A stretch of 58,916 nucleotides of DNA, counting the filler, from Basidioascus undulatus (Eukaryota): assembly GCA_000826855.1 (NCBI GenBank). It is 6 parts of 6 records of this genome, joined end to end, with 100 filler letters (N's around TTAATTAATTAA, not from the genome) between each part and the next. Parts side by side here need not be neighbours in the genome. Positions count along the whole stretch, not along the records: positions 25,656 to 52,534 come from JTLS01000177.1; 5 more parts are not named here. One strand, written 5' to 3'. The notes below the pieces were generated by a model. That model saw nothing but the letters and a program-made list of their open reading frames with translations. It did not search any database and had not been told where the DNA came from. Made by a program: the position numbers and the translations under genes. This document shows, in pieces, positions 4,682 through 51,500 of the stretch; position 1 is the first letter of the stretch, and each line of letters starts with the position of its first letter.

Positions 4682-6031
4682 TTACGCCTCGGGCGCGGCC
4701 TCGCCGGACGCCTCGGGGGCGGGCGCAGGCTCGTCCTCCTTCTTGGTCTCGGACTCCTGCTGCGGTCATGCCACAGCGTTAGTCTCTGAGCAGCGTCAAC
4801 TACCGGCCGCGAACAAGAAGCTCACCATGTCGCTCGTCCACAAGGTGAGGTTGTCGCGGAGGAGCTGCACAAGTGGAAACGTTAGACACCTCGTTCTCAA
4901 GATCCTTCCCCGGTTCGGATCGTCTTACCTGCATGATGAGCGTGGAATCCTTGTAGCTCTCCTCGGAGAGTGTGTCGAGCTCAGCGATGGCGTCGTCGAA
5001 CGCCTGCTTGGCAAGGTGACACGCGCGGTCGGGCGAGTTGAGAATCTCGTAGTAGAAGACCGAGAAGTTGAGGGCGAGACCGAGGCGAATCGGGTGGGTG
5101 GGCGGCAGCTCGGTGAGGGCAACGTCGGAGGCGGCCTTGTACGCCTCGAGGGACTTGTCGGCGGAGTCCTTGCGCTTGTCGCCGGTCGCGAACTCGGCGA
5201 GGTAGCGGTGGTAGTCGCCCTTCCTGTTAACCGTGAGAAACGTCAGCGGCGTCGACGCGATTGAGTGCACAAGCCGGTTTAAGGCCTCGTCGCAGCCCGA
5301 CACACCCCCTTCAGGGCGTGCAGAAGTCTGCGACAGGACCTGGTGCAGGCTACAAGGGCGATCGGGAAGATCGACGCACATCTTGTGGTAGAAGACCTTG
5401 GACTCGCCCGAGGCGGCCGAAGGGATGAGGTGCTTGTCGAGGACCTCGAGGATGTCCTCGCAAATCCGGGCAAGCTCGCCCTCAATCTGAACACGCCCGC
5501 GATCATGTCAGTTCTACGCGTTCGAGAGTAAGACGCATGTGGCTGTGTTCAACGCACCTTCTCACGGTAGCCCTTGATCATGGAGACCTGGGACTCATTG
5601 CCCTTCGACTCCTCCTTCTGCTCGATGGACGAAACAATCCTCCAGCTGGCACGGCGGGCACCCTGGTGAGGGCGCGTTGGGGGACGCGTCAGGGCACGCT
5701 CGGACCGCAGGATGCGGGGGAAAAAGAGCGCGTACGATGACATTCTTGTACGCGACGGAGAGCAGGTTGCGCTCCTCAACGGTGAGCTCCTGGTCGGACG
5801 AGGCGACACGCTTCATGCTCTCGACCATCTCTGCGCGACGGAACGAAAGCGCAAGATAGCGCGGTCAGCAAGCCCCTTGTATACCGCTGCCGTCCCGCGC
5901 TCCGCGCTCCGCCGCCCTGCCTCCTCGCGCCCTGAACTCGATCTGCTCGCCAAAACACACTCACCCTCGTAACGCTCAGCCTGCTCGGCGAGCTTGGCCA
6001 GGTAGACGCTGTCCTCGCGGCTCTCAGACAT
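4682..6031 (-). CDS. BMH1: 14-3-3 protein (7 coding exons; 5'-UTR intron 6032-6128 ends directly at the ATG)
   Basis: [97 protein letters not shown]. All introns GT-AG and in frame; TAA at 4682-4684. Confidence 0.99.
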
Positions 6032-12231: not shown

Positions 12232-12639
12232 CTAGTCCAACCCGATCTTCTCCAGCACCTCCCGCATCTTCCCTTCCTCCCCAAGCACCTCAAAGTGCCC
12301 GCCCACCACGTCACTCAAATCCACATCCTCGACGCCCGCACCCTTCCCGGCGCCCGTCTCTCCGCTGACGGGCCCAAGCCCCGCAACGCGCACGCCCTCG
12401 CGCGGGTCGCGGAACGCGACGACCTCGTGCAGCCTGCAGACGAGCGCTAGAACGGCGTCCTGCGGCGCGTAGGCGTTGACCAGGCGGTCGGCGGTGAAGG
12501 ACCGAAGATGTGCCCATTGTTGGGGGTTCGGCGCGAAGGGGAGGGAGATGAGGATTAGGGAGGAAAGCGGCGGGGTGCGCGGGGCCGGGAGGGAGAGCAA
12601 CGCATGCACGAGCGTGAGGGAGCCGAGAGAGTGGCCAAT
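12232..12639 (-). CDS. DUF726 (TMCO4/Mil1-like) alpha/beta-hydrolase-fold protein, last exon
   Basis: IGHSLGS lipase-like motif, RLVNAYAPQDAVL, VAGLGPV, VEDVDLSDVVGGH. Acceptor at 12640; upstream part lost in the gap. Confidence 0.85.
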   Translation of the reverse strand: MGHSLGSLTLVHALLSLPAPRTPPLSSLILISLPFAPNPQQWAHLRSFTADRLVNAYAPQDAVLALVCRLHEVVAFRDPREGVRVAGLGPVSGETGAGKGAGVEDVDLSDVVGGHFEVLGEEGKMREVLEKIGLD

Positions 12640-12741
12640 CTGCGATGGAAGGCCGGCATGGGTCAGAGGGAGCTTAGTTGTAGAAGGCGAGCGGAGGTCG
12701 TACGAGGGTGAGCGGGCGATTGCCGTGTACGCGCTGCTGCA

Positions 12742-12841
12742 NNNNNNNNNNNNNNNNNNNNNNNNNNNNNNNNNNNNNNNNNNNNTTAATTAATTAANNN
12801 NNNNNNNNNNNNNNNNNNNNNNNNNNNNNNNNNNNNNNNNN
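12742..12841. other. artificial contig linker
   Basis: N44-TTAATTAATTAA-N44. Confidence 0.98.
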
Positions 12842-13707
12842 CGGGTTCCCCCCCGGGTTCGCGGAGGAGGAGCGCATCCCTTTGCCGGTTCTTGCGAAGC
12901 GCGGGGAGCGGGTCCGGCCGGTGGAGGATGTGGGGCCGTACAAGTCGTAAGTTGGCGGTGTCCTTGAGATAAAGGGAGAAAGAGGCTGATGATGGGTGCA
13001 GATGGACGACCCTCTACCCAATTTACATCGACGCGAAGCAGCCATACGGCGTGCGGAGGGTCGAGCGGAGGGAGGCGCAGTGGTGGCCGCTTGCGCAGGA
13101 GATGGCGGAGGCGGCGGCGACGCTGGGGTACGATGTGCTGTATGAGGTGCGTTTCCCGTATTCTTCCTCTTTACCCAAGATTCTGATGGTGCGGGTGTGT
13201 GTGGCAACAGCCGACCAAAACGCACCCGCGCGACTGGGCGAACCCCGGGCGCGTCAAAGTCCTCTTCAATGGGCCCGAAGCGTTCCAGCACCCCAAAATC
13301 ACGACCAGTCCGTTCCCCTCTCCCTCCTTCCCCTCCTCCACCTCCTTCTCATCCCTCCTCTCATCCCCACAGAGAAGAACCTAACCCGCGCCATCAGCGG
13401 CATAATAACGCGGAACAACCCTGTCCTCCGGCCGTCCCCAGAGTCCTCCACCTCCTCCCAGCCGCCGCGCCCGCTCCCCGCGCCGAAGAACCGCCTCCCG
13501 TCGCACAGCCCCGCGCTCGAGACGGGGATGTTCGTCGACGCCGCCGTGCGCAGCCTCGAGGCGGACCGGGAGGCGGAGCGCGCTGCTCGTGCGGACGCCG
13601 CGCCGGGGGGAAAGGGGAAGGAGGTGGTGGGCCGTGGGGCGGGCGAGGGCAAGGAGGGAAAGGAGAAGAAGATCAAGATTAAGAGAAGGGTGGTGAGGGC
13701 TGGGTAG
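12842..13707 (+). CDS. SEC65: signal recognition particle SRP19 subunit (5' partial)
   Basis: WTTLYPIYIDAK...RRV, WPLA, E|PTKTHPRDWANPGRVKV; basic C-tail; three in-frame GT-AG introns. Confidence 0.95.
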
Positions 13708-19148: not shown

Positions 19149-19248
19149 NNNNNNNNNNNNNNNNNNNNNNNNNNNNNNNNNNNNNNNNNNNNTTAATTAA
19201 TTAANNNNNNNNNNNNNNNNNNNNNNNNNNNNNNNNNNNNNNNNNNNN
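19149..19248. other. artificial contig linker
   Basis: N44-TTAATTAATTAA-N44. Confidence 0.98.
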
Positions 19249-19711
19249 CGCGCCATCCTCCTCCCTCACAGCGCGCTCCGCCTCCCTCAGCGCCTCCCCA
19301 AAGTTCTCACCAACCTCCACCACCTCAGCGCCATCCCTTTTCAAAACACCCTTCACCCCCTCGCTCGCCCCCATGGGCAAGTAAACCGTGCACCGCACGC
19401 CCAAGGCCTTCGCAGCCCACGCCGCCGCGAGCCCGGCGTTCCCGCCCGACGCGGCAATGAGGTGCACGCTTGGCCCATGCGCCGCGAGCGCGCGCTGGGC
19501 GAAGAGGCTGAGGCCTCGCGCTTTGAAGGATTGGGGGGGCTGGAGGATCTGTGGGGAACTAGGGGAGGAAGATACCGAGGAGAGGGTGAGGGGGAAGACG
19601 CACTTCAAGTTTGAGATGGATTTGGGAGGAGAGGGAGGTGGATAGGGAGGGGGAGTACAGGAGAGGCGTGGCGCGGTAGAGTGGGGGTAGGGTGGGGGTG
19701 GGCGCAGCCAT
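19249..19711 (-). CDS. PLP-dependent L-serine/threonine dehydratase (Cha1-like), N-terminal part
   Basis: TPLLYS...IHLKLE|ILQPPQSFKARG (PLP lysine) and ASGGNAGLAAAWAA. Confidence 0.92.
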
Positions 19712-20796
19712 TGGGAGGATGGTGGGGGTTGAAAGGCAAGAGGGAGAGCAAGGGACGAAGGCCAGGAGATTCGGCCCGAAGTCGCAGGGGCAGGGGCAGA
19801 GTTGGCGTGTGCAACCGCTCGCCGCGTGCACAACGCCCGCTGCGTTTTGAAAGAAATTGTTTCGACGCTCAGATTGCTCTCGGGCTACCTTGTGAATGCA
19901 CTTGTATCTGTCAGATGGGCGGCATGAAGAAATGCATCGACGTCCAAGCTTGACTACTCCTCAGCTGGAACGCAGGCTGAGCGCTGATCGAGAGCTTCTC
20001 GCGAGCGATGGGGCTATACAATCCCTGAAGAGATGTATTAACTTGTCAAGATATGGCCATTGCTAAGCACGGCAAGGAATCGATTCCCCTTCCCGTTACA
20101 ATTACATGTTACAGTGGCGCAAATTCACTCTCTAATTTACTTCTTGGGTTTGGATTGAAGACATTAGAACACAGCTAAATTAATAAGAGCCTCAACCCCT
20201 ACCTCAAATTCGAGCTGCAAGCGACATGCACAACCTCAGACGGCGACACAAACCCTCAAAGAAGTGGGTATGGGAAGACAGAAGTTTGGATCATCAGCTG
20301 GCTTAAGAAAAGGACTCAAGTGCGGTCACGAACTGTGTGCCTTCGTTGATATCCATATGTTGCTGAACGCGAGAACCTACCACTTCAAGCTGCCGACGGC
20401 AGACGGGCGATCTCAAGACACTAGTCGCAGATGTTTCAAGACCTTATGAGTGAACATTTGCGGGAGTCGGATTCCACTATACGTATCACCGAAAGACTTC
20501 TACAAACTGTCTACTGAAAAATGAAGGAAGTTTCAGTCTGTCGGGTGGTGAATAACCATGTAACTTTCTGGTCTTTCTTGCAAACTGGCGACACGCGGAT
20601 TGCGCGAGCGCTCCCCCAAGCCAATTCCATAGGGAATCAGAATGCTAGAGCTGAAAGTGAACGGTGTCAACAGGTAGCAGGCTTTCATGCTCAACAGACG
20701 GTACCGCTTTAATACATAAGGCAGCTGGCAGTCAGTCAACTCACCGCGGACACATCATCCGCATCCGATATCGCATCTTGACACAAAACCGCGCGT

Positions 20797-26570: not shown

Positions 26571-27953
26571 CTACAACTTGGCCTTCTCTCGCTCCCTCTT
26601 CTCCACCTTCCTCAGCACGACGTCCTCCACCCACTGTGCCACCTCCCTCTCCACCTCCTCACTCCTCTCGACCATCACCCAATGGCCGCACCCCTCCAAC
26701 CTCACCCTCCTAAACTCGCCCTTCACAAACTTCTCCATCCCGCGCGCCATCTCCTCCGGGATCGCAAAGTCCTTCGTCGGCTGTACGAACAGCACGGGCA
26801 TCCCCTGCGGCAGGTGCGTGGGGACCCCCGCGGCTTGCTCCTCCAGGAAGCGGTGGTGCGTCGTGCGGTACCAGGACGTGGGGCCGAGGAGGCGCGAGCG
26901 GGAGAAGGACTGGACGTAGAAGGCGTGCTCCGCGGGCGTGAGCAGGTCGGAGCGGATGGAGCGGAAGCGGGAGTCCCGTGACGAGTCGTCGAGTGTGCCG
27001 GGCGTGGACCAGTGCGTCTGGCGCGGCTGCTGCGTTTCGGAGGCGGACGGGGAACGGTGCAGGAGGTGGATGAAGGTGCTGATCTGTTGCGAGGGGTGAA
27101 TGATAAATGTGTGAGTGGAAGGAAAAGGGGAAGGGAGGAAAGGGCAGACGGACGTTTCGCTCGAGCTCCTCCGCATTGCGCTCGTCCGCGAGGTACAGCT
27201 GGTAGTTGAAGTTTGGCCGGCGCTTGACGATCTCCTCGAGGGGGATGTACTCCTTGTTTGGAGGCAAGTAAGGGAGAGCGAGCCTGCCGTCCATCAGCCA
27301 TCCCCGAATCGTTCAGCGGCTTCTCAGGGGAACTCGCTGCAGCAGGGGATGGAACGCACCCAGCGACCCCGAGCACCCGATCAGGGTGGTACTGCGCCAT
27401 CCTCCACACCGTTGCTGCGCCCCAGTCATGCCCCACTAGGATGACCCTCTGCAGGCCCAGGAGGTCGAGCAGGGCTACGAGGTCGGAGGAGACGGATTTG
27501 AGGGAGTAGCGCCCGATGTCGGCCGGCGCATCCTGCGGTGCCGGGAGTGGGATTCAGCTTGCGAGGGAGAAAAGAGCTGGGGGGAGCTAGGAAAGACGCA
27601 CCGTGCCTGCGTAACCTGTGAGAGATGGCACGACCACCCTCCACCCCCTCTTCGCCCACGGAACGATCTGGTGTCTCCACCCGTACCTATTGTCCGCCTC
27701 CCGCCCAACTCAGCACTCGGCTCCCTCCCCCATTCGCTCTCTATCACGCTCACCAGAGGTCCGGGAACCCGTGCACGAGCAGCAGCGTTGGCTGAACGGT
27801 CGGGTCGGGGAGGGGCACGCCCTGCGCGTCGAAGGGCGGGACGTCGATGTACGTATACGTGAGGCCGTTGAGCGTCGCGCGGAGGTGCGGGTACGAGGAC
27901 GGGTCGGAGGGCGTAGGGAGCTTGAAAGGCTTTGGCTGCGGTGCGGCGGACAT
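26571..27953 (-). CDS. soluble epoxide hydrolase-like alpha/beta hydrolase with PTS1 (-AKL)
   Basis: LVHGFPDLW|YGWRHQI, GHDWG nucleophile Asp, YQLY lid Tyr, WYR, GCGHWV catalytic His; ends KAKL*. Confidence 0.95.
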
Positions 27954-31515: not shown

Positions 31516-33513
31516 GTTCGATATTACGATTGACTGGTACCGCAGAAGCGAGAGACTGAATTGGTGTGGAAAGAGTGAAGGATGGGGGATGAGGTCGAGG
31601 CGAATACGCCGCCTCGCCTTTTATGTATCCCCTGCCCGGCCTCTGCCGCGTCCTCCTGGCCCGCGAGCCTTTTCCGCGAAGGCGTAGCATGACAACATAT
31701 TAGATCGCAATGGCAGCATTGACACAGGGCATGCGGCGTTGAGGGAGCCGGTGGCAGTAGGGTAACCTGAAATGTCGGCGCAGTGTGCTGTGTCCCGCCG
31801 GACTGCAGAGAACGACACTGCCAAGCACTGGAAGAGTTTCAACAGCGTCGTTAGCTACATGCCAAGGAGTCTGTGAATAGATTTTTGACAAGGGTGCTAG
31901 TTTTAGCTTGAGGAACGGGTGTCGAATGCGGGTCTGTTAACATTTCATTAAGGTGACGCGAGCGCACACTAAACACTCGCAACGAAGTCGTCCGCCCGAG
32001 CTTGCGGAATGCTTCAGCTGCCTTCCATTGCTTCCATGGAAGAATAATATCATATTGAAAGAATTTTTCTATCGCAATATGAGCGATCACTGGAAGGATT
32101 GGGGACGAGACAAAGCTTGACCTGAGTCTTCCTGTGTTTGTTCCATCAGACGTGACGCAGACACCCTATAGCCTACAACCCATGCCTCTTTCCAGTGGAA
32201 CTTCTCCAACACAGTACCTATTTCGCCATTTCAAAGATTATGAAATTCGTTGGGCAGTGCCTCATACGACGTTCCCGGACAGGGCGCTTGGTTAGCGGGG
32301 TCCAGAAGCCCTGGAGAACATCACGATTGCAGCTGCGCACACCATCTCGACGACAACTTCCCCCGGTGATCGGTTCATGCGTTGCGCTGAGAGCGCATAA
32401 TTGGCGTCGCAAATACCGCTCACACAAATGGTAAGTAGTTGCCACATCGCTGAGTCTAATCGACATCGCATAAATTTCGACTAGCGCCTCTTGCGCGACG
32501 AGAGTGGGCGATGGCGACTACACCTCCTTCGACTTGGATACCGACTTTTGCATGTACTCGTCAATTTGAAACGCTGGCCATGGGTCTGAAAGAGCTAAGT
32601 TATATTCGCCAGCTCCTTACTATGCACAATGCTTGCATCAATTGGGCTTACCCCATGTCCGTCGACTTGAAGGATACCCATCGGACTCGCTACGCACGCG
32701 TGGACTTTACGTCCATACCTAATGGTTGAGGCAAGGCAGAAACAGGAACGATTAGAAAAATTGGTAAAGCCTCTGATCTGTGATGAGCCTGCAGGATTGA
32801 GGAGCCTCAGACCTAGCAGTCTGCTTCAATCTTTGTTACGGCTGTTTATCTTTCATTATTGATGGATATGATCTTTTTTTGCGCATACTGTAGCATAATT
32901 TTGCACTGATATGAGTGCTTCATTATCATAGGATCCATTTCAAGGTCAAAGCGTCGTCGCTGCCCAGAACAAGAGAATAAATGTGTGACTTCAGCCTCCC
33001 TTAGGTAACTGAAAGCACACAAGATTTATATACTTTAGGAATTTGAAATTTCTCTGTGTTCATCGGCACTCCCTCTACCACGCTCAAACAACGGCCCTTG
33101 TGAGCGCCGCGCAGTTGTTGACAAGTGTAGGTCGGCGCGAAGTCCTCACAACCGCACAATGCGAAGTCTTTACAACCGCATCTTCACTAAGTTCCCCAGG
33201 TAGTGGTTATACTTGCCGGCAGGAGCTGCAAAGCTGGACGGGGATGTCATCCTGTGCATAGATTGTCGGACCTTGCTTATCTTGTCACAGTAGAGAAGCA
33301 ATGCTCCGTTACTCCAAAACAACCGCACACAACCTTTACAGGTGTATTTCCCAAAATTAGGACTACCCACGCGAGGAGAAAGCACATGCGCAGTCGGCAT
33401 CAAAACGCTCGATCGGCATCTGAGTCTGCGGAATCTTCTGGGATCGCTGCTTCCGAGGACTGCTTTCTCTCTCAGAACGGAGAGCGTCCATCTCTCTTGC
33501 GTTCAGAAGCAAT

Positions 33514-34437
33514 ATGCAAGACCCACAGTGGGAATTTCCTGACGTTGTTCTAGCGTTGACGACCGCAGATTCCGCCGATGCGCAACTGGAGGCCATTCGC
33601 AAGTGCGTCCTCGCCGTGAGCTCCATAGGACTATTCATCACGAAGCTTGCTAATTACTCTCACGGTGGGGATTCGTTCTATACACCGGTTCGAGCATCAG
33701 ATACTTTGCGCCTGACGCGGGCTTCAACCACCCAATGTGCCGTGTTAACCGAGGCCCTGGAAGCAGGGATAGATGGATTCTGGGAATCTACCAGTGGGTT
33801 CTCATATTTTCTGAGTCTACCTGATTTTGATTCGGGTGTGGGCTTCGAATGGGCCGGAGCAGATGGTATAGGATCTTGAGCCCCAACATCACGCTCGAGG
33901 TCACCCAACACGTGTGGAACCGAGAAACGAACACGCTTTTCTTGGAGGTAGTGTCAGTGTTGGAAGAACAATTTGTTATAATATTACTAACTCCGAATTT
34001 ACGTGATAGACAAACGTTCCACGTCTTTCTGTCGCCACTCAAGCCGCATCCGACTCGGTGCGTCCATACTGTTTCTCCCCGCCACTTCCACCGGTCATGT
34101 ATCACCATCTCACATGATCTTGGTTCGGCTTTATCCAGCCTAGCGGTAAAGGTTCAGCTCCAACAGGACCCCGACGGTCTGTACCGCATTATCTATCAGG
34201 AAGACTGGTATCAGCCAGAGGTGCGTCCATTTCATGCAAACCGCCTGATCTCAATGGCTTCTAGGTGCTTGCACGAACTAACCGGGAATTTTTTTGCAGG
34301 ACATCACATACGTCTTCGTCCCTCAGTTTGCACCGCTCGTTCTTATCGCCAAACACATCTGCACAGTTATGTGCAACGTGAATGCGCAGGTGGTCCAGAC
34401 ACTTCTGGGTTGGTGGAAGCCGCGGAAGGACACCTAG
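33514..34437 (+). CDS. fungal SigF-like NTF2/SnoaL-fold protein
   Basis: Spliced: MQDP..VLALT..Q.EAIRKYFAPDAGFNHPMCRV..SRDRWILGIYQWYRILSP...YRIIYQEDWYQPED; six exons in frame. Confidence 0.8.
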
Positions 34438-34860
34438 CAGGTGGGAGCTAAGAACAAGGAATGTAACTTGTTTCAGAGGACTGTCACATGGTGTTTCTTA
34501 TGTTTGAGAACCTTGAACAGCCCATGGTTGAGCATTGGAAGTGCGAGGCGCGCGCTGAAAGGCGACGTGCAGCTGAGCACTAATTACTTAACAATGGCCC
34601 CTTCAACTGACCGGGTTGAAAATAAACCAAACAAACAGGCTGTGTTTCAAGTCCGCAACGGCAGTGACACTGACATCGTGACAGTGTCTGTTCGTTTGCC
34701 AGATGACTCTTGATGACTCCTCCGCTCCTCCGCGGCCCGTCGGTCCCAGAACTGCCCACTGGCCCCTCGACGAGCATAAAATTCTCCACGCACGTGTACG
34801 CCTCTGCCTGAACATTCATCATCCTAGACAGGCTTGTCTTCGCTGTTGCGCACCATCGTC

Positions 34861-36867
34861 ATGTCCACCTCCGCGGCCACCATCTCTCCGGCCTCACCTT
34901 CCAGCAGACTCCTTCTCTTTATGGGAGTCTTTCATGGGCTGTTAAAGTCGAAACAGCTCCCTGACGCACTCCACATCCTTCTCTTAGGGCTTGCGGATCG
35001 AGTTCGCGCGGAGGACTGGATTCGGCGCACTGGTATGGGTCACGAAGCGTACGTTGTGCGGAAGTACTCTTCACCTCGCGCGGAGTACTGAGCAGGGAAT
35101 ATGAGGAACAATGTTCACCACAACTGCACACTTCGAGAGCCCGGACGAGTCATACAACTGGATCATGGCTTGGCTTGCCGACCACTTCCATCCCGCTCCA
35201 GTTGTGATACTGATGTTCTTGAACGCCCGAGCAGCACAACCCAGCTGGACTTCTGCGTCCGACTTCCTCGTTTGAGTTTCTAGCAGAAGGGACGATGGCG
35301 ACTACTCAGGCTCGAGTCGCTCGAAGTCAAAGCGCAGTACTGTGACTGTCCGCTACCGTCTCTCTTACGGTCCGTCTCCGACCGCCCAAAGAAAAGACCT
35401 CTTAGCAGCGCCGAGAAGTCTTCTATCTTCTTGTGTTGCAGATAACCATCGATGGATTACTTTCCAAAACCACCTGCTGCGAGTTTCCCGCTCGCAGCGT
35501 GAAGAAGGAAACCCTTGGACTACTGAACGTGTCATCGGGATTCTCTCACCATAACGTCCGTTCTATCTCCACATATACTTCTTTCCCCGTGCCGAGCTAA
35601 TGACCGTCTTTTCGCAGTGCGTACACGCCCTCGTGCTCCATCATCCCGCAGCTGATCGAGCACGCGCGGGACCTGTACCTTCGCAACTCGCAGTCGAGGC
35701 TTGTCGTCTACATGGGCGAGTCCGTGTATCTTCTACCGCTTTAACCCAAAGTCATCGGTGGGCTGACACCCCTGATCTTGTTCAGCCAGTACGGGGACTG
35801 GCGCCGCCTTGCTTCGAAGGTGCACCTCTCGCTCGCATCTGTCATCCTGCCGGACGGGATCAAGGAGCGACTGCGCGCGGACGCGCAGAAGTTTCATGAC
35901 AGCGATGAGTGGTACGTTTCCAGGGGGACGCCATATAGGAGAGGTTATCTGCTGCATGGTGAGCCTGCTGCGTCAGTTTCAGCTTTGATGCCGAAGCTGT
36001 TTTCCAACGATTTGTTCCAGGTACGCCCGAGAGTGACAAGTCCAGCACCATTCATGCGCTTGCGTCCAAGTTCGGTCTGGAGGTCTATATCATTCCCCTC
36101 TCGATTAAAGGGCACGCCCATTTGCTGCCGACCCTATTCTTGCTGGCCCCATCCTTCTGCAGCTCGGGAGGGTGCATTTGACTGACCTAATGCTTGTATT
36201 TTGAAGCCTCAACGACGCGACCCTGGCAAACCTGACGACCGGCACTCCCGGACGCTGTAGCCTCTACCTCGAGGCCGACGCGGCATTCCCTCGCGCGCGG
36301 CCAACACCAGTTGGACCAGCAGCAGCAGCAGCAGCAGTCACGGTGGCGAGCGCTGCGAACCTGTCCAGGCCGCCTCCCACGGCGAGGCGACACGACCGTG
36401 ACGCTGCCCGGGCTGCTGAACGCGATCGATGGCGTCTCAGCGCAGGAGGGTCGTCTACTTCTCGCTAACCCCAACTACCCCCAGCGCCTGGATCCCGCGC
36501 TTTTGCGACCTGTAAGTATTGTTTCGCCTCATTTGCGGTTCCGCCCTCTTTTCCACCCTTCAAATGGAGATTATCCCAGCTTCTGACTTCGGAAGTGGTA
36601 CTACAGGGCCGCATCGACATTCGCATCGAGTACACGCACGCGTGTCCAATGCAAGCTGCTGAGCTCTTCGGGCGATTCTACCCGGAGGTGATAGGGCGCG
36701 TTGCGGGAGACGGGGTAGACATGGTCGAGGAGTTCTCAGGGCATGTGGCGGAAGGGAGGTTGAGCGTCAGTCAACTCCAGGGGTACCTACTGCTTTGGAA
36801 GGACAGGCCGCAGGAAGCCGTGGATGGTATCGGCGAGTAGGTCGCTCAGGAGTTAGGGGATGTATGA
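34861..36867 (+). pseudogene. BCS1-like AAA+ ATPase pseudogene
   Basis: SVILPDGIKE, WYVSRGTPYRRGYLLHG, TLPGLLNAIDG, LDPALLRPGRID. Walker A decayed to GTPESDKS and Walker B to LYLEAD. Frameshift near 36300-36390; TAG at 36838-36840 where a Trp would fit. Confidence 0.85.
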
Positions 36868-37582: not shown

Positions 37583-39911
<2,329 letters not shown>

Positions 39912-47978: not shown

Positions 47979-48608
47979 CACAGGGAAAAAAAGACCATCT
48001 TATGGTCAGCCATAAGCTGGCGTTAGGCCAATGATGTCTCGCCTGATGTCCAGCCGACATCAGGTCGCTTTATGTCTGCCTTATGGATGTCTTAGGGCTT
48101 CGCTTGCAATAGAAGGTTGGCTCGGGTTGTAAAGTGGCTCAAGTGCCAAACAACGTTCAAAAACATGAGTACAGATGGCTGCCTTTGACATGATGTAAAA
48201 GTTCATTCGAGGTACTATTTTTCTATCACAAAATACAATTCTTGATCCTCATATTCATCCAGTGGGCAGCCCAGATCTCGATCGAGATAAGACCTGGGGA
48301 AACCTAGCGCACGCGGCGTCAGCGTCGAAAGTCGTGCGGGAAAAACGCCTTGAAACCCCCAGCATAAATTACTATAGGTTATACTGAATTCGCTAGTAAA
48401 TTACTAGTGATTCTGCCCGCCAGCATATATGTCCTGTGGGTTTTCAGACGGCCGTCATGCGTCCTTCAGGCGGACATCAGGCGTACATCAATTCGTGTGT
48501 GGCCGTCTAATGGCTCAGACATAAGACAGACGCGATATGTCTAGACAACATAAGCCCGATTGATAATCGACTTATGACCTGGCCATCAGGCAGCTTTTTT
48601 CGTTTGTG
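47979..48608. mobile_element. non-autonomous CACTA/EnSpm(CMC)-like TIR element (630 bp)
   Basis: Imperfect ~38-bp TIRs (CACAGGGAAAAAAAGACCATCTTATGGTCAGCCATAAG vs reverse complement CACAAACGAAAAAAGCTGCCTGATGGCCAGGTCATAAG). 3-bp ATT duplication at 47976-47978 and 48609-48611; subterminal GACAT(C/A)AG motifs in both orientations. Confidence 0.75.
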
Positions 48609-49365
48609 ATTGTGGTGTAAATGTTCGGTGCAGGTGCAGATTGCAGACGCAACGGTGGTTTTAAATCCGTTGTCGCACTGCTCAATCGCGTCGGCGCGAC
48701 CTCGAGCAGGTATTGTGAGCGGCGACTGGGACCGAGATACGGACGATGTGCCTTTCCGTGCTCCTTTCTTTGAAAGAGAAGCGAGCCGTGTGTGCTACGA
48801 AAGGCTTTCGTTTTTCAATTCACCTTCAGTCACCATGCCCCTCGCAAATTGTGCAGGGGGCGCCTGTGAATCACTTCGTCGGCGCCTGCAATCAGAAACC
48901 GTTCGCATCGGCGGATATATGGTGTGTGCGCTTTATTCTTCTTCTAAAGATGCGCAGGCCCAATACCACAATGGCGGAGCCCAGAGGAGGAGATAGTACT
49001 ACGTGTCTCTCCGACGGACTTAGCGGTCAGAGGTTCCGGTGATTGTCGACAGGATGAGGGCGCCGATAGGGGGTTGGCCGAGGGCATTGAGTAATGCTGG
49101 TGGACTCAGTGAAAAGCCTACCGTGAATGGGGAAAATTGGGAGGCTATCAGTGGTCAGCGGGAACAACAACACCGAACTCCGCCTCGGAGGCTCGGCGGT
49201 GGAATCTCCGGTTGGGCGCGGTCAGTGAGGTCATGCGCCTTGGGGAGGAAGACCTCGTCGAATCCATCGTCTCTTGAGTTTTCTCCAATACCATCACCAC
49301 CACAACCCATTACATTCACTCCCATTCCCAAGCAATTAGTAGATCGGAACAGCAGAAGGACTAGA

Positions 49366-50815
49366 ATGGCGCAGGAAGCTAGAGCGAGGCCTGTTATTCT
49401 TGATACCGACGGTAAGCGTCCTCGGCCTCCTGACGGTGCGTGAGGAACCGCTGATTTTGCTGTTTGTTTCTCAGTGAGCTTCTACAGATCCGCACTAGAC
49501 TAGAGGCATGTCACAAAAGGCTGAGGATGTGCTCTATGCTCCTGATCCCTTGCAGCCCGGCGTCGACGACGTGCTCGCGATCCTCCTGCTCCTATCGCGC
49601 CCCTCTCCGTCCTCCCCGACTGCGTCCTTCGAAACCCCCATCATCCTCGACTCGATCACGGCCACGTTTGGGAACACGTCTGTCGACCACGCGTACAACA
49701 ACATCGTAAAGACGTTCCACGTCCTCCAGTCCCTGCCCGACCACGAGCGCGCGCGCTTCCCCGCCTTGCAGGACGGGAGAAAGATCCTATTCGGGAAGGG
49801 AGCGGACGGGCCGCTGGAGAGCGAGACAGCGCTGGCGGGATATTTTGTGCGTCCGTTCATGTTAACATGCTATCCCAACTCAGCGCTCAACCCCAACCGC
49901 CCTCCCCGCCCAGCACGGCCCCGACGGCCTGTCCTCCATCTCAGACACACACCCACACTTCACGCCCGCGCCCACAGCGCCGCTACCCGCGCCGCTCCAA
50001 GCGTCAACGCTCCCCTCGCACGCGCTCATCCTCGAGCGCCTCCGCGCGCACCCGCCAGGGACGGTCGACATCGTCGCCATCGGTCCGCTGACGAACCTCG
50101 CTATGGCGTTCCGCGCGGACGAGGAAACGTTCAGGAGAGTCGGGAGGGTGCTCGTTATGGGCGGGGCGCTGGAGGCGCCGGGGAATACCGCTCCGGAGAG
50201 CGAGTTCAACTTCTATGCGGATCGTACGTCTCTGCTCTCCTTCCCCGTGCTTTCAGTTCCCCGCTGACGGACGTGCTACGGCGATGTTCCCGACTCACAG
50301 CATACGCTGCCTCTCTCCTGACCACCGCCTCCCCGCCCCTCCCGATCTACCTCTTCCCCCTCGACATAACGACCGTGCACCGTATCCCCTACACGTCCCT
50401 CATCCCCCCTCTTCCGCCCACATCCTGCGAAGCCCCAGGCCCCTCCCCGACCCTCCGCTGCTACACCTCCTCCTTCCTCGCGCGCCCCCGTGCATTCAAC
50501 GCCTCGCGCTCCCTCCCCGATGCGTTTGAGGCGCACGACCCTCTCGCGGCGTGGGGCGCGTTCTACGCGTCCCTGGACGCCGCGCACGGGGGGTGGGAGG
50601 TCGTCTGGCGCGCGTTTGCGGTTGAGCGGGAGGGCAAATTGACGCGGGGGATGTGCGTGGTCGATCGGCGCGGGGGGACGGGCGAGGGACAGGGCGGCGA
50701 GGGCCGCACGGGGAGTGGGGAGGGGAAGAGCGGCGGCACGTGGGTGGTGAAGAGCACGCCGGGGATCGAGGTGTTTGAGAGGGAGTTTGTAGGCAGGGTG
50801 TTTGGGGAGGCTTGA
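49366..50815 (+). CDS. inosine/uridine-preferring nucleoside hydrolase (first intron is a stwintron)
   Basis: VILDTD|PGVDD, TFGN, YF|HGPDGL, AIGPLTNLA, VMGG..PGN, SEFNFYAD|P, PLDIT, HDPLA, TRGMCVVDRR. Confidence 0.95.
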
Positions 50816-51500
50816 GTGCCGGTGGAATGGAGGTGGATAGATTGGGCGATGTGCACGGGATGATCGCACGTTGTACTGTGGACTCTGTGTGCCAGGCTGT
50901 TCGGGCAGGTCTCAGCGAGGCCTTTCAGCCAGTTCTTGGCCTAATTGTGTGGCGTGAGGCAAACGCCATGCCCATCGACCCCTGTATACCAGTGTTTCTC
51001 GCGCACCCTCTAATGTCGAGTCGTTCCAGGCTTCAAGAATTCGAAGTACTTATATAAATTCTTTTTCGTTCGCAAGTCCTTGTTCAACATTGTCGTCAGA
51101 GGCCTCATGTTGCTCAATCATGCTTCCCCATGTCTACCGACTGGCCCTTCACATCCAGACCAACCGGCTCGGCAGCTTTTCCGTTCTCCACTTCCGAAAC
51201 AAAACCTAACCTGTCCGATCTCCAAGATTGAAGACCAAATTGCCCCTTCCGAAAGAAAGCGCGTTCCTCGAGCAGTTCGAATTGTCATCACCTCCGCTGG
51301 CGCTGTTCCTGCCCCTGCCGGCTTCCTGCCAGTGCCTCCGAGGCGTGTCCTCCGCGGACTGACAGCTGAGCGCTTTCTCCACCGTTGAAGGTATAAAACC
51401 TCTCCCTTAAGGGTTTTTCCTTCTTTCCTCACTTCCCCCTTCCCCGATTTGCCAATTTTCCGCCCTAGACCTTTCACTCGACCTCAATCCAACGTCTACG

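Follow-up and report, generated by a model that had tools for sequence, protein, structure and literature searches.

A putative donor-disrupted [D1,2] spliceosomal twin intron at the first coding exon junction in the nucleoside hydrolase gene of a basidiomycete

Introduction

Spliceosomal twin introns (stwintrons) have been described mainly in ascomycetes, as the initial annotation of the DNA analysed here had stated, and the literature that we found, to the extent of its accessible text, places them in Ascomycota only. A review locates them in species from a number of ascomycete orders (PMC7385547), and the Lipomyces case is called the first stwintron outside Pezizomycotina (PMC7138796). Within the available portions of two further papers, the position of the lipS stwintron is given as absent in 52 Basidiomycota orthologues (PMC5639578), and the reticulon-like gene as not found in Basidiomycota (PMC6616335). 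No basidiomycete stwintron, twin, nested or recursively spliced intron was found in the searchable full-text literature, which does not include the earliest subscription-journal stwintron papers. One nested-intron candidate (PMC3596301), considered as a basidiomycete case, was set aside, as its accessible part concerns Euascomycetes.

The closest described systems are the uniquely occurring [D1,2] stwintrons known from Hypoxylaceae and elsewhere in Pezizomycotina (PMC9024468, PMC12403724, PMC5639578), which, in the available text of these papers, have a GGT 5' end and an internal U2-type intron that splits the external donor between G1 and T2. For stwintrons of Pezizomycotina, two-step excision was shown through RT-PCR of intermediates, with the splice sites pairing by intron definition (PMC5639578, accessible sections), and [D1,2] stwintrons are reported to lie typically at new, species-specific positions (PMC12403724, accessible sections). 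In Hypoxylaceae, the consulted sections of PMC9024468 give 7 nt as the dominant spacing from inner branch point to acceptor and 6 nt as the commonest outer spacing (50/81), and add that a GGT intron start is not recognised by automated predictors. The [D1,2] layout is shared by the sister stwintrons of Hypoxylaceae and Xylariaceae, which are repeated and internally symmetrical (PMC8469720 and PMC12403724, in the parts available). Within Agaricomycetes, 20 of the approximately 92,000 introns in the Ganoderma lingzhi re-annotation are GG-AG, a class no more frequent than GA-AG (35), CA-AG (21) or AT-AG (21) (PMC11590231 Table 1, from the accessible part of that source), so that not every apparent GG-AG intron has to be a stwintron.

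Here we describe a 145-nt sequence in a window of 58,916 nt (the whole stretch of DNA that was analysed, filler included). It interrupts a nucleoside hydrolase gene and is very probably a donor-disrupted [D1,2] stwintron (49411-49555), for which we infer excision in two steps.

Materials and methods

Three public sequencing runs were found to contain the gene, here called X1, X2 and X3, each of which is labelled 'DNA?'; the library kind of X3 is not on record. X1 and X2 derive from two studies, have contigs that amount to approximately 35 million letters per run and are both possible sources of the window itself; X3 (15.7 million letters) is from the same sample as X2. Contigs were placed on positions 48500-51500; they drop rare forms and show presence, not absence.

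Architecture was assessed with the published [D1,2] formula (PMC9024468 section 2.1; Fekete, Flipphi and co-workers). Its first half consists of G, one of 24 donor hexamers, 25-80 nt, DYTRAY, 4-20 nt and HAG, and its second half of T with the remainder of a listed donor, 25-110 nt, DYTRAY, 4-20 nt and HAG. Model D, in the accessible text of the same paper, is a relaxed branch-point variant, CCTRAY, in which the motif starts with C. In a conditional shuffle test, the first G and the last 15 nt of the 145 nt were kept fixed and the rest was shuffled. Pfam families were sought in 194 of the window's 203 stop-to-stop ORFs, the nine left out all overlapping the hydrolase gene. Of the 21 loci returned by a metagenome contig search with the hydrolase, 20 were inspected; L017 was left out (match from query residue 37).

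Structure of the insert and its host gene

The proposed stwintron lies at the first coding exon junction of an IU-nucleoside hydrolase gene of an Agaricomycotina basidiomycete, and the sequence-level feature is real, the coordinates of the 145 nt at 49411-49555 (+) all being confirmed by direct reading of the window sequence. The gene is composed of the following features:

49292..49365, + strand: 5' untranslated part, in the transcript-like X3 contig (the contig start is not the transcription start)
49366..49410, + strand: exon 1 coding, 15 codons MAQEARARPVILDTD, ending GAT ACC GAC
49411, + strand: lone G, carried by the DNA contigs of X1 and X2 but missing in the mature contig
49412..49474, + strand: internal intron, 63 nt, with GTAAGC donor, GCTGAT at 49450-49455, 16-nt spacer and CAG acceptor
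49475..49555, + strand: external intron remainder, 81 nt (82 nt including G49411), with TGAGC start, CCTGAT at 49541-49546, 6-nt spacer and CAG
49556..49846, + strand: exon 2, opening PGVDDVLAILLL, with CCC GGC GTC GAC GAC start; PF01156 positions 7-69; X3 joints
49847..49913, + strand: intron 2, 67 nt, GT..AG; X3 joint 49846->49914
49914..50223, + strand: exon 3; PF01156 positions 77-167, 86.2 bits; X3 contig
50224..50300, + strand: intron 3, 77 nt, GT..AG; X3 joint 50223->50301
50301..50815, + strand: exon 4 coding, stop TGA at 50813-50815; sequence and PF01156 match; X3 coverage up to 50675

No upstream ATG was found by sequence scan within 49292-49365, and the ATG at 49366 is the first in the transcribed stretch. 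The internal intron, with 32 nt between its donor and branch point, matches motifs 1-3 of published model A, and G49411 together with TGAGC (from 49475) makes the donor GTGAGC, which is among the 24 donors of the published list. The 3' end of the external intron (49555) is backed by an X3 joint. An AG followed by T occurs only once in the 145 nt, at 49473-49474, and the nesting point is therefore unique. The initial annotation had placed the exon ends at 49410 and 49556 and divided the insert into a 63-nt internal and an 82-nt external unit, all of which is exact in the sequence. Translation of the product likewise confirmed its statement that one-step splicing from GTAAGC leaves an extra G and shifts the frame, and the restoration of DTD-PGVDD that it expected from removal of the 145 nt is seen in the spliced frame.

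Excision would proceed in two steps. In the first, the donor G|GTAAGC (49412) would pair with the nearest GCTGAT..CAG (49474) and 63 nt would be removed, the internal intron being directly preceded by G49411. In the second, the same G49411, joined to TGAGC, would become G1 of the external split donor, and the resulting GTGAGC would pair with CCTGAT..CAG (49555) for the removal of 82 nt. The expected outcome is the in-frame GAC|CCC junction, itself present in the X3 contig, with the motif DTD-PGVDD restored. The removed piece starts with GG, and the observed mRNA therefore cannot result from one GT-AG or GC-AG excision; with canonical signals alone, the sole route is for 49412-49474 to leave first, followed by the new GTGAGC..CAG unit. 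Judged from this arrangement of sites, two cuts, one after the other, are most likely required for the correct message.

Encoded protein and predicted gene products

Joining 49366-49410, 49556-49846, 49914-50223 and 50301-50815 gives 1161 nt, or 386 codons and a stop, and the spliced product is a 386-aa IU-nucleoside hydrolase (Pfam PF01156, inosine-uridine preferring nucleoside hydrolase). The profile matches exons 2, 3 and 4 in order (positions 7-69, 77-167 and 170-280 of 297); taken singly, exon 3 scores 86.2 bits, and exon 2 (residues 1-73, 24 bits) and exon 4 (21.2 bits) both fall below the 34.2 cut-off. The alignment opens with the first residue of exon 2 at profile position 7, and the six profile positions that precede it are supplied by exon 1. 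Exon 1 is also the source of the first two Asp residues of the DxDxxxDD motif, which we take to be the N-terminal Asp cluster of the IU-nucleoside hydrolase. DTDPGVDD is present only once the 145 nt are removed, and the same motif occurs in the three homologues P0001-P0003.

These homologues are the three of 572 candidates that passed a protein search with exon 2 (best 40% identity), a search in which neither the gene's own protein nor a close orthologue was found among the 572. All three carry an unbroken IIDTDPGVDDVLAIL, with IIDTDPGVDD uninterrupted in 3/3, and the alignments of the spliced protein to P0001 and P0002 run from one terminus to the other, with 46% identity (165/361 and 168/365 aligned pairs, respectively).

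The other possible RNA forms of the gene are predicted to be non-functional. Translation of the unspliced RNA predicts a stop after 25 codons, that of the intermediate lacking the inner unit alone a stop after 24 codons, and that of RNA lacking only the native 82-nt GTGAGC..CAG unit a stop after 25 codons.

Agreement with the published formula

As in the [D1,2] class, the excised piece reads 5'-GGT...AG-3' (where GGT or GGC is accepted), a complete internal U2 intron runs from its second base, removal of the inner unit makes a canonical external donor, an external branch point (by relaxed CCTRAY only) and acceptor follow, and the mRNA is unreachable by any single canonical excision. The 145 nt match the formula from first letter to last under model A with the outer branch point taken per model D, which upholds the [D1,2] architecture proposed in the initial annotation; under strict model A the 145 nt have no fit, the outer CCTGAT failing DYTRAY.

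Across both strands of the window, the combined formula gave two matches, against a mean of 0.08 and a maximum of 1 in 100 dinucleotide shuffles. The second, at 32719..32545 (-), is probably a chance match: its donors are weak, its acceptor is AAG, and every one of the three frames is closed by stops on either side. In the conditional shuffles, an allowed donor at positions 2-7 arose with a probability of 0.0077 (200,000 shuffles) and the remainder fitted, given the donor, with a probability of 0.0055 (553/100,000 shuffles), so that the combined chance of the layout given the fixed ends is ~4e-5. In Hypoxylon, according to the accessible text of PMC9024468, model A returned 282 candidates, 90 of which were authentic; at the present locus, the formula match also coincides at both ends with a GG..AG excision in a transcript-like contig, and therefore constitutes strong evidence.

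Evidence from public sequencing runs

X1 (depth 18) and X2 (depth 52.3) each yielded one contig across 48500-51500 with 0 gaps, and a G>T substitution at 50703 was the only difference of these contigs from the window. GG stands at 49411-49412 in the contigs rebuilt from both runs, which may be the window's source, and the extra G at 49411 is therefore real. X3 yielded one contig of 1095 nt at depth 22.9, covering 49292-49410, 49556-49846, 49914-50223 and 50301-50675. Its joint 49410->49556, which is unambiguous ('both' = 0) and has 119 nt on its shorter side, passes over the 145 nt whose ends read GG..AG, and the same contig is without the two GT..AG introns of 67 and 77 nt.

Two checks put forward in the initial annotation were thereby answered. 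The first asked whether reads carry GG or a single G, and the X1 and X2 contigs have GG with 0 gaps, these being runs that may underlie the window itself; the second asked for the mature junction GAC|CCC, which is present in the transcript-like X3 contig. None of the three X3 joints occurs in the X1 or X2 contigs over 48500-51500, and with the joined form absent there, it is therefore not a genomic retrocopy. X3 behaves as a transcript library and is called RNA-derived here only because of the three intron-sized joints. The hydrolase gene is expressed, according to this transcript-like contig.

Alternative explanations

The main rival to two-step excision, and an unlikely one, is that a non-canonical GG-AG intron is excised in one step, with the cut made before G49411, for example with U1 docked on GGTAAGC in a shifted register, and with the inner acceptor and TGAGC unused. 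The mature junction alone fits one step or two, and in a basidiomycete annotated by hand, GG-AG is found alongside other odd N-N..AG classes, all of comparably low frequency (PMC11590231, in its accessible part). One-step excision nevertheless leaves the in-register inner branch point, acceptor and donor remainder unexplained, features that would co-occur by chance at ~0.0055 given the donor and ~4e-5 overall. It is also at odds with general splicing chemistry, in which efficient catalysis requires U as the second intron base.

Less probable again is that the in-frame mRNA is one of several products, with one-step use of GTAAGC or retention possibly frequent and the nested layout serving to throttle expression as opposed to being a neutral two-step route. 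GTAAGC could in principle pair with the outer acceptor, and the product of that single step would be frameshifted; on the other hand, the sole X3 contig on the gene has the in-frame joint, with no other form (intermediate, retained intron or one-step product) in the contigs, none of those from X3 falling within 49411-49555; such contigs speak for presence only. The frameshifted product would run for 291 codons out of frame to a stop at CDS nt 873, which lies in the last exon, past the last exon junction at nt 647, and it is therefore not a classical substrate of junction-dependent nonsense-mediated decay (NMD). The suggestion in the initial annotation that mis-splicing might feed NMD is, as worded there, not borne out, as the frameshift stop lies beyond that last junction.

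That the stwintron is an artefact, either through an extra G introduced by sequencing or assembly error into a GT-AG intron or through an X3 contig that is a chimera or processed DNA copy, is highly improbable. In its favour, X1 and X2 are possibly the reads behind the window, and no record gives the library type of X3. Against it, GG appears with 0 gaps in newly built contigs of both runs (depths 18 and 52.3), each run coming from a different study; with a single G the intron would be 144 nt of GT..AG and X3 would still join 49410|49556; and the X3 joint has at least 119 nt on each side at depth 22.9, with the joined form absent in both DNA runs.

Comparison with described introns

The two-unit [D1,2] stwintron proposed here resembles the uniquely occurring [D1,2] stwintrons found in Hypoxylaceae and elsewhere in Pezizomycotina (PMC9024468, PMC12403724, PMC5639578; available text) in its GGT 5' end, in the internal U2-type intron that splits G1|T2, in the donor, CTRAY branch point and YAG acceptor of both units, which lie within the published distances, in its outer spacing of 6 nt and in an intron position that is not shared with relatives. 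It differs from them, as far as their accessible text goes, in its basidiomycete host and in that the intermediate is deduced here, whereas there it was demonstrated. Two further differences weigh against the stwintron reading, namely the outer branch-point motif, which starts with C, and the inner spacing of 16 nt, as opposed to the 7 nt dominant in Hypoxylaceae.

With the sister stwintrons of Hypoxylaceae and Xylariaceae, the insert shares the [D1,2] layout. Membership of that family was rejected, given no repeated copies, no special fold and unlike inner and outer units. No second copy of the 145 nt was found in the window (blastn), and no other X1 or X2 contig was found on 49411-49555 at 90% likeness. 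The fold of the 145 nt was unexceptional (z = -0.72; 49/200 shuffles fold as well), and 136/500 shuffles scored as well as the inner unit against the outer. The units are thus alike no more than shuffles, and an origin by tandem duplication is unsupported. Neither unit showed similarity to introns 2 and 3 beyond shuffles, except for a weak score between the outer unit and intron 3 (22/500).

In the recursive (ratchet-point) splicing of long animal introns, the first ligation makes the next donor, which lies wholly downstream of the ratchet acceptor. The arrangement proposed here would share with it the sequential removal and the creation of the next donor by the first ligation; it would differ in that one upstream base becomes G1 and in that both units are of ordinary short fungal size. 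The GG-AG introns of Ganoderma lingzhi likewise have RNA-supported GG..AG ends in an Agaricomycete, whereas, in the accessible part of their report, they are given as a splice-site class only, without a stwintron reading (PMC11590231).

Intron position among relatives

The best match among the 21 metagenome loci reached 41% identity to exon 2. The DTD and PGVDD codons are contiguous in 14 of the 20 loci inspected, and the other six have upstream frame breaks with acceptor-like sequence nearby, as read by eye. No intron at the window's exact position was found among these 20 distant loci (<=41% identity). This empty position agrees with the species-specific positions of [D1,2] stwintrons in the available text of PMC12403724. 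A single-copy 145-nt insert that is absent at this position in the examined relatives would probably represent a lineage-specific gain.

Five of the metagenome loci, L013 (537) and L018-L021, have an apparent intron inside the Gly codon of DxDxG, 4 nt downstream of the window's position, and a sixth, L012, has one approximately 7 nt upstream of it (both by eye). The region of the DxDxG motif may be a recurrent site of intron gain.

Phylum of the host and significance

Matches to genes neighbouring the hydrolase in the window agree with the initial annotation, which had named a basidiomycete host, and point to Agaricomycotina as the origin of the window. With a serine-dehydratase-like exon (19204-19884, -), the named matches before the first bacterial one were basidiomycetes only (38-69% identity), comprising Agaricomycetes, Calocera and one weak Kwoniella match. 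For a 14-3-3 exon, the named best matches (67-69% identity) were mostly Basidiomycota with Ascomycetes close behind, and this exon alone is therefore not decisive on phylum. On these sequence comparisons, the window belongs to a basidiomycete of Agaricomycotina that has no close relative in the searched database.

In the searchable literature, as far as its accessible text extends, stwintrons are known from Pezizomycotina and the yeast genus Lipomyces, and the Agaricomycotina case is new. Outside Ascomycota, it is likely to be the first stwintron with RNA support. In that event, nested introns with a split donor would be spliced in two steps by intron definition throughout Dikarya, and basidiomycete GG-AG introns would include unrecognised, mis-modelled stwintrons. 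The range of stwintrons would be widened to the sister phylum of Ascomycota, providing a second lineage in which to study the origin of nested introns. Automated predictors miss a GGT start, and such genes would therefore be mis-modelled at the N-terminus; here, this would mean the loss or scrambling of the motif that opens the conserved hydrolase domain. The locus also offers a concrete reading for some of the 'GG-AG' non-canonical introns in basidiomycete re-annotations.

Other features of the window

No Pfam family was found in the immediate neighbours of the hydrolase (194 stop-to-stop ORFs and eight long ORFs scanned). Pfam matches occur elsewhere, in stop-to-stop ORFs at 19204-19884 (-), 12235-13704, 26574-27553 (-), 33831-34448, 36469-36837 and 38804-39784; the families across these ORFs are PALP (serine dehydratase-like), DUF726, SRP19, alpha/beta hydrolase, SigF-like NTF2, BCS1-like AAA lid and RRM.

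The 14-3-3 gene (4826-6031, -) has at least five coding pieces, and tblastn hinted at one in-frame read-through insert of approximately 52 codons between FYHKM and GDYHRY. Its length suggests a single intron of approximately 150 nt, and so long single introns may exist in the host genome.

Downstream of the hydrolase, two 40-nt segments (51250-51289 and 51328-51367) are matched by other X1 and X2 contigs with 3-4 mismatches and look like short dispersed repeats. Within the hydrolase itself, position 50703 is G in the window and T in the X1 and X2 contigs (at all depth), and by codon count a Gly in the Gly-rich insert of exon 4 thereby becomes Val. This position lies 28 nt past the end of the X3 contig, and the two letters may reflect different alleles in a dikaryon or a discrepancy between assemblies.
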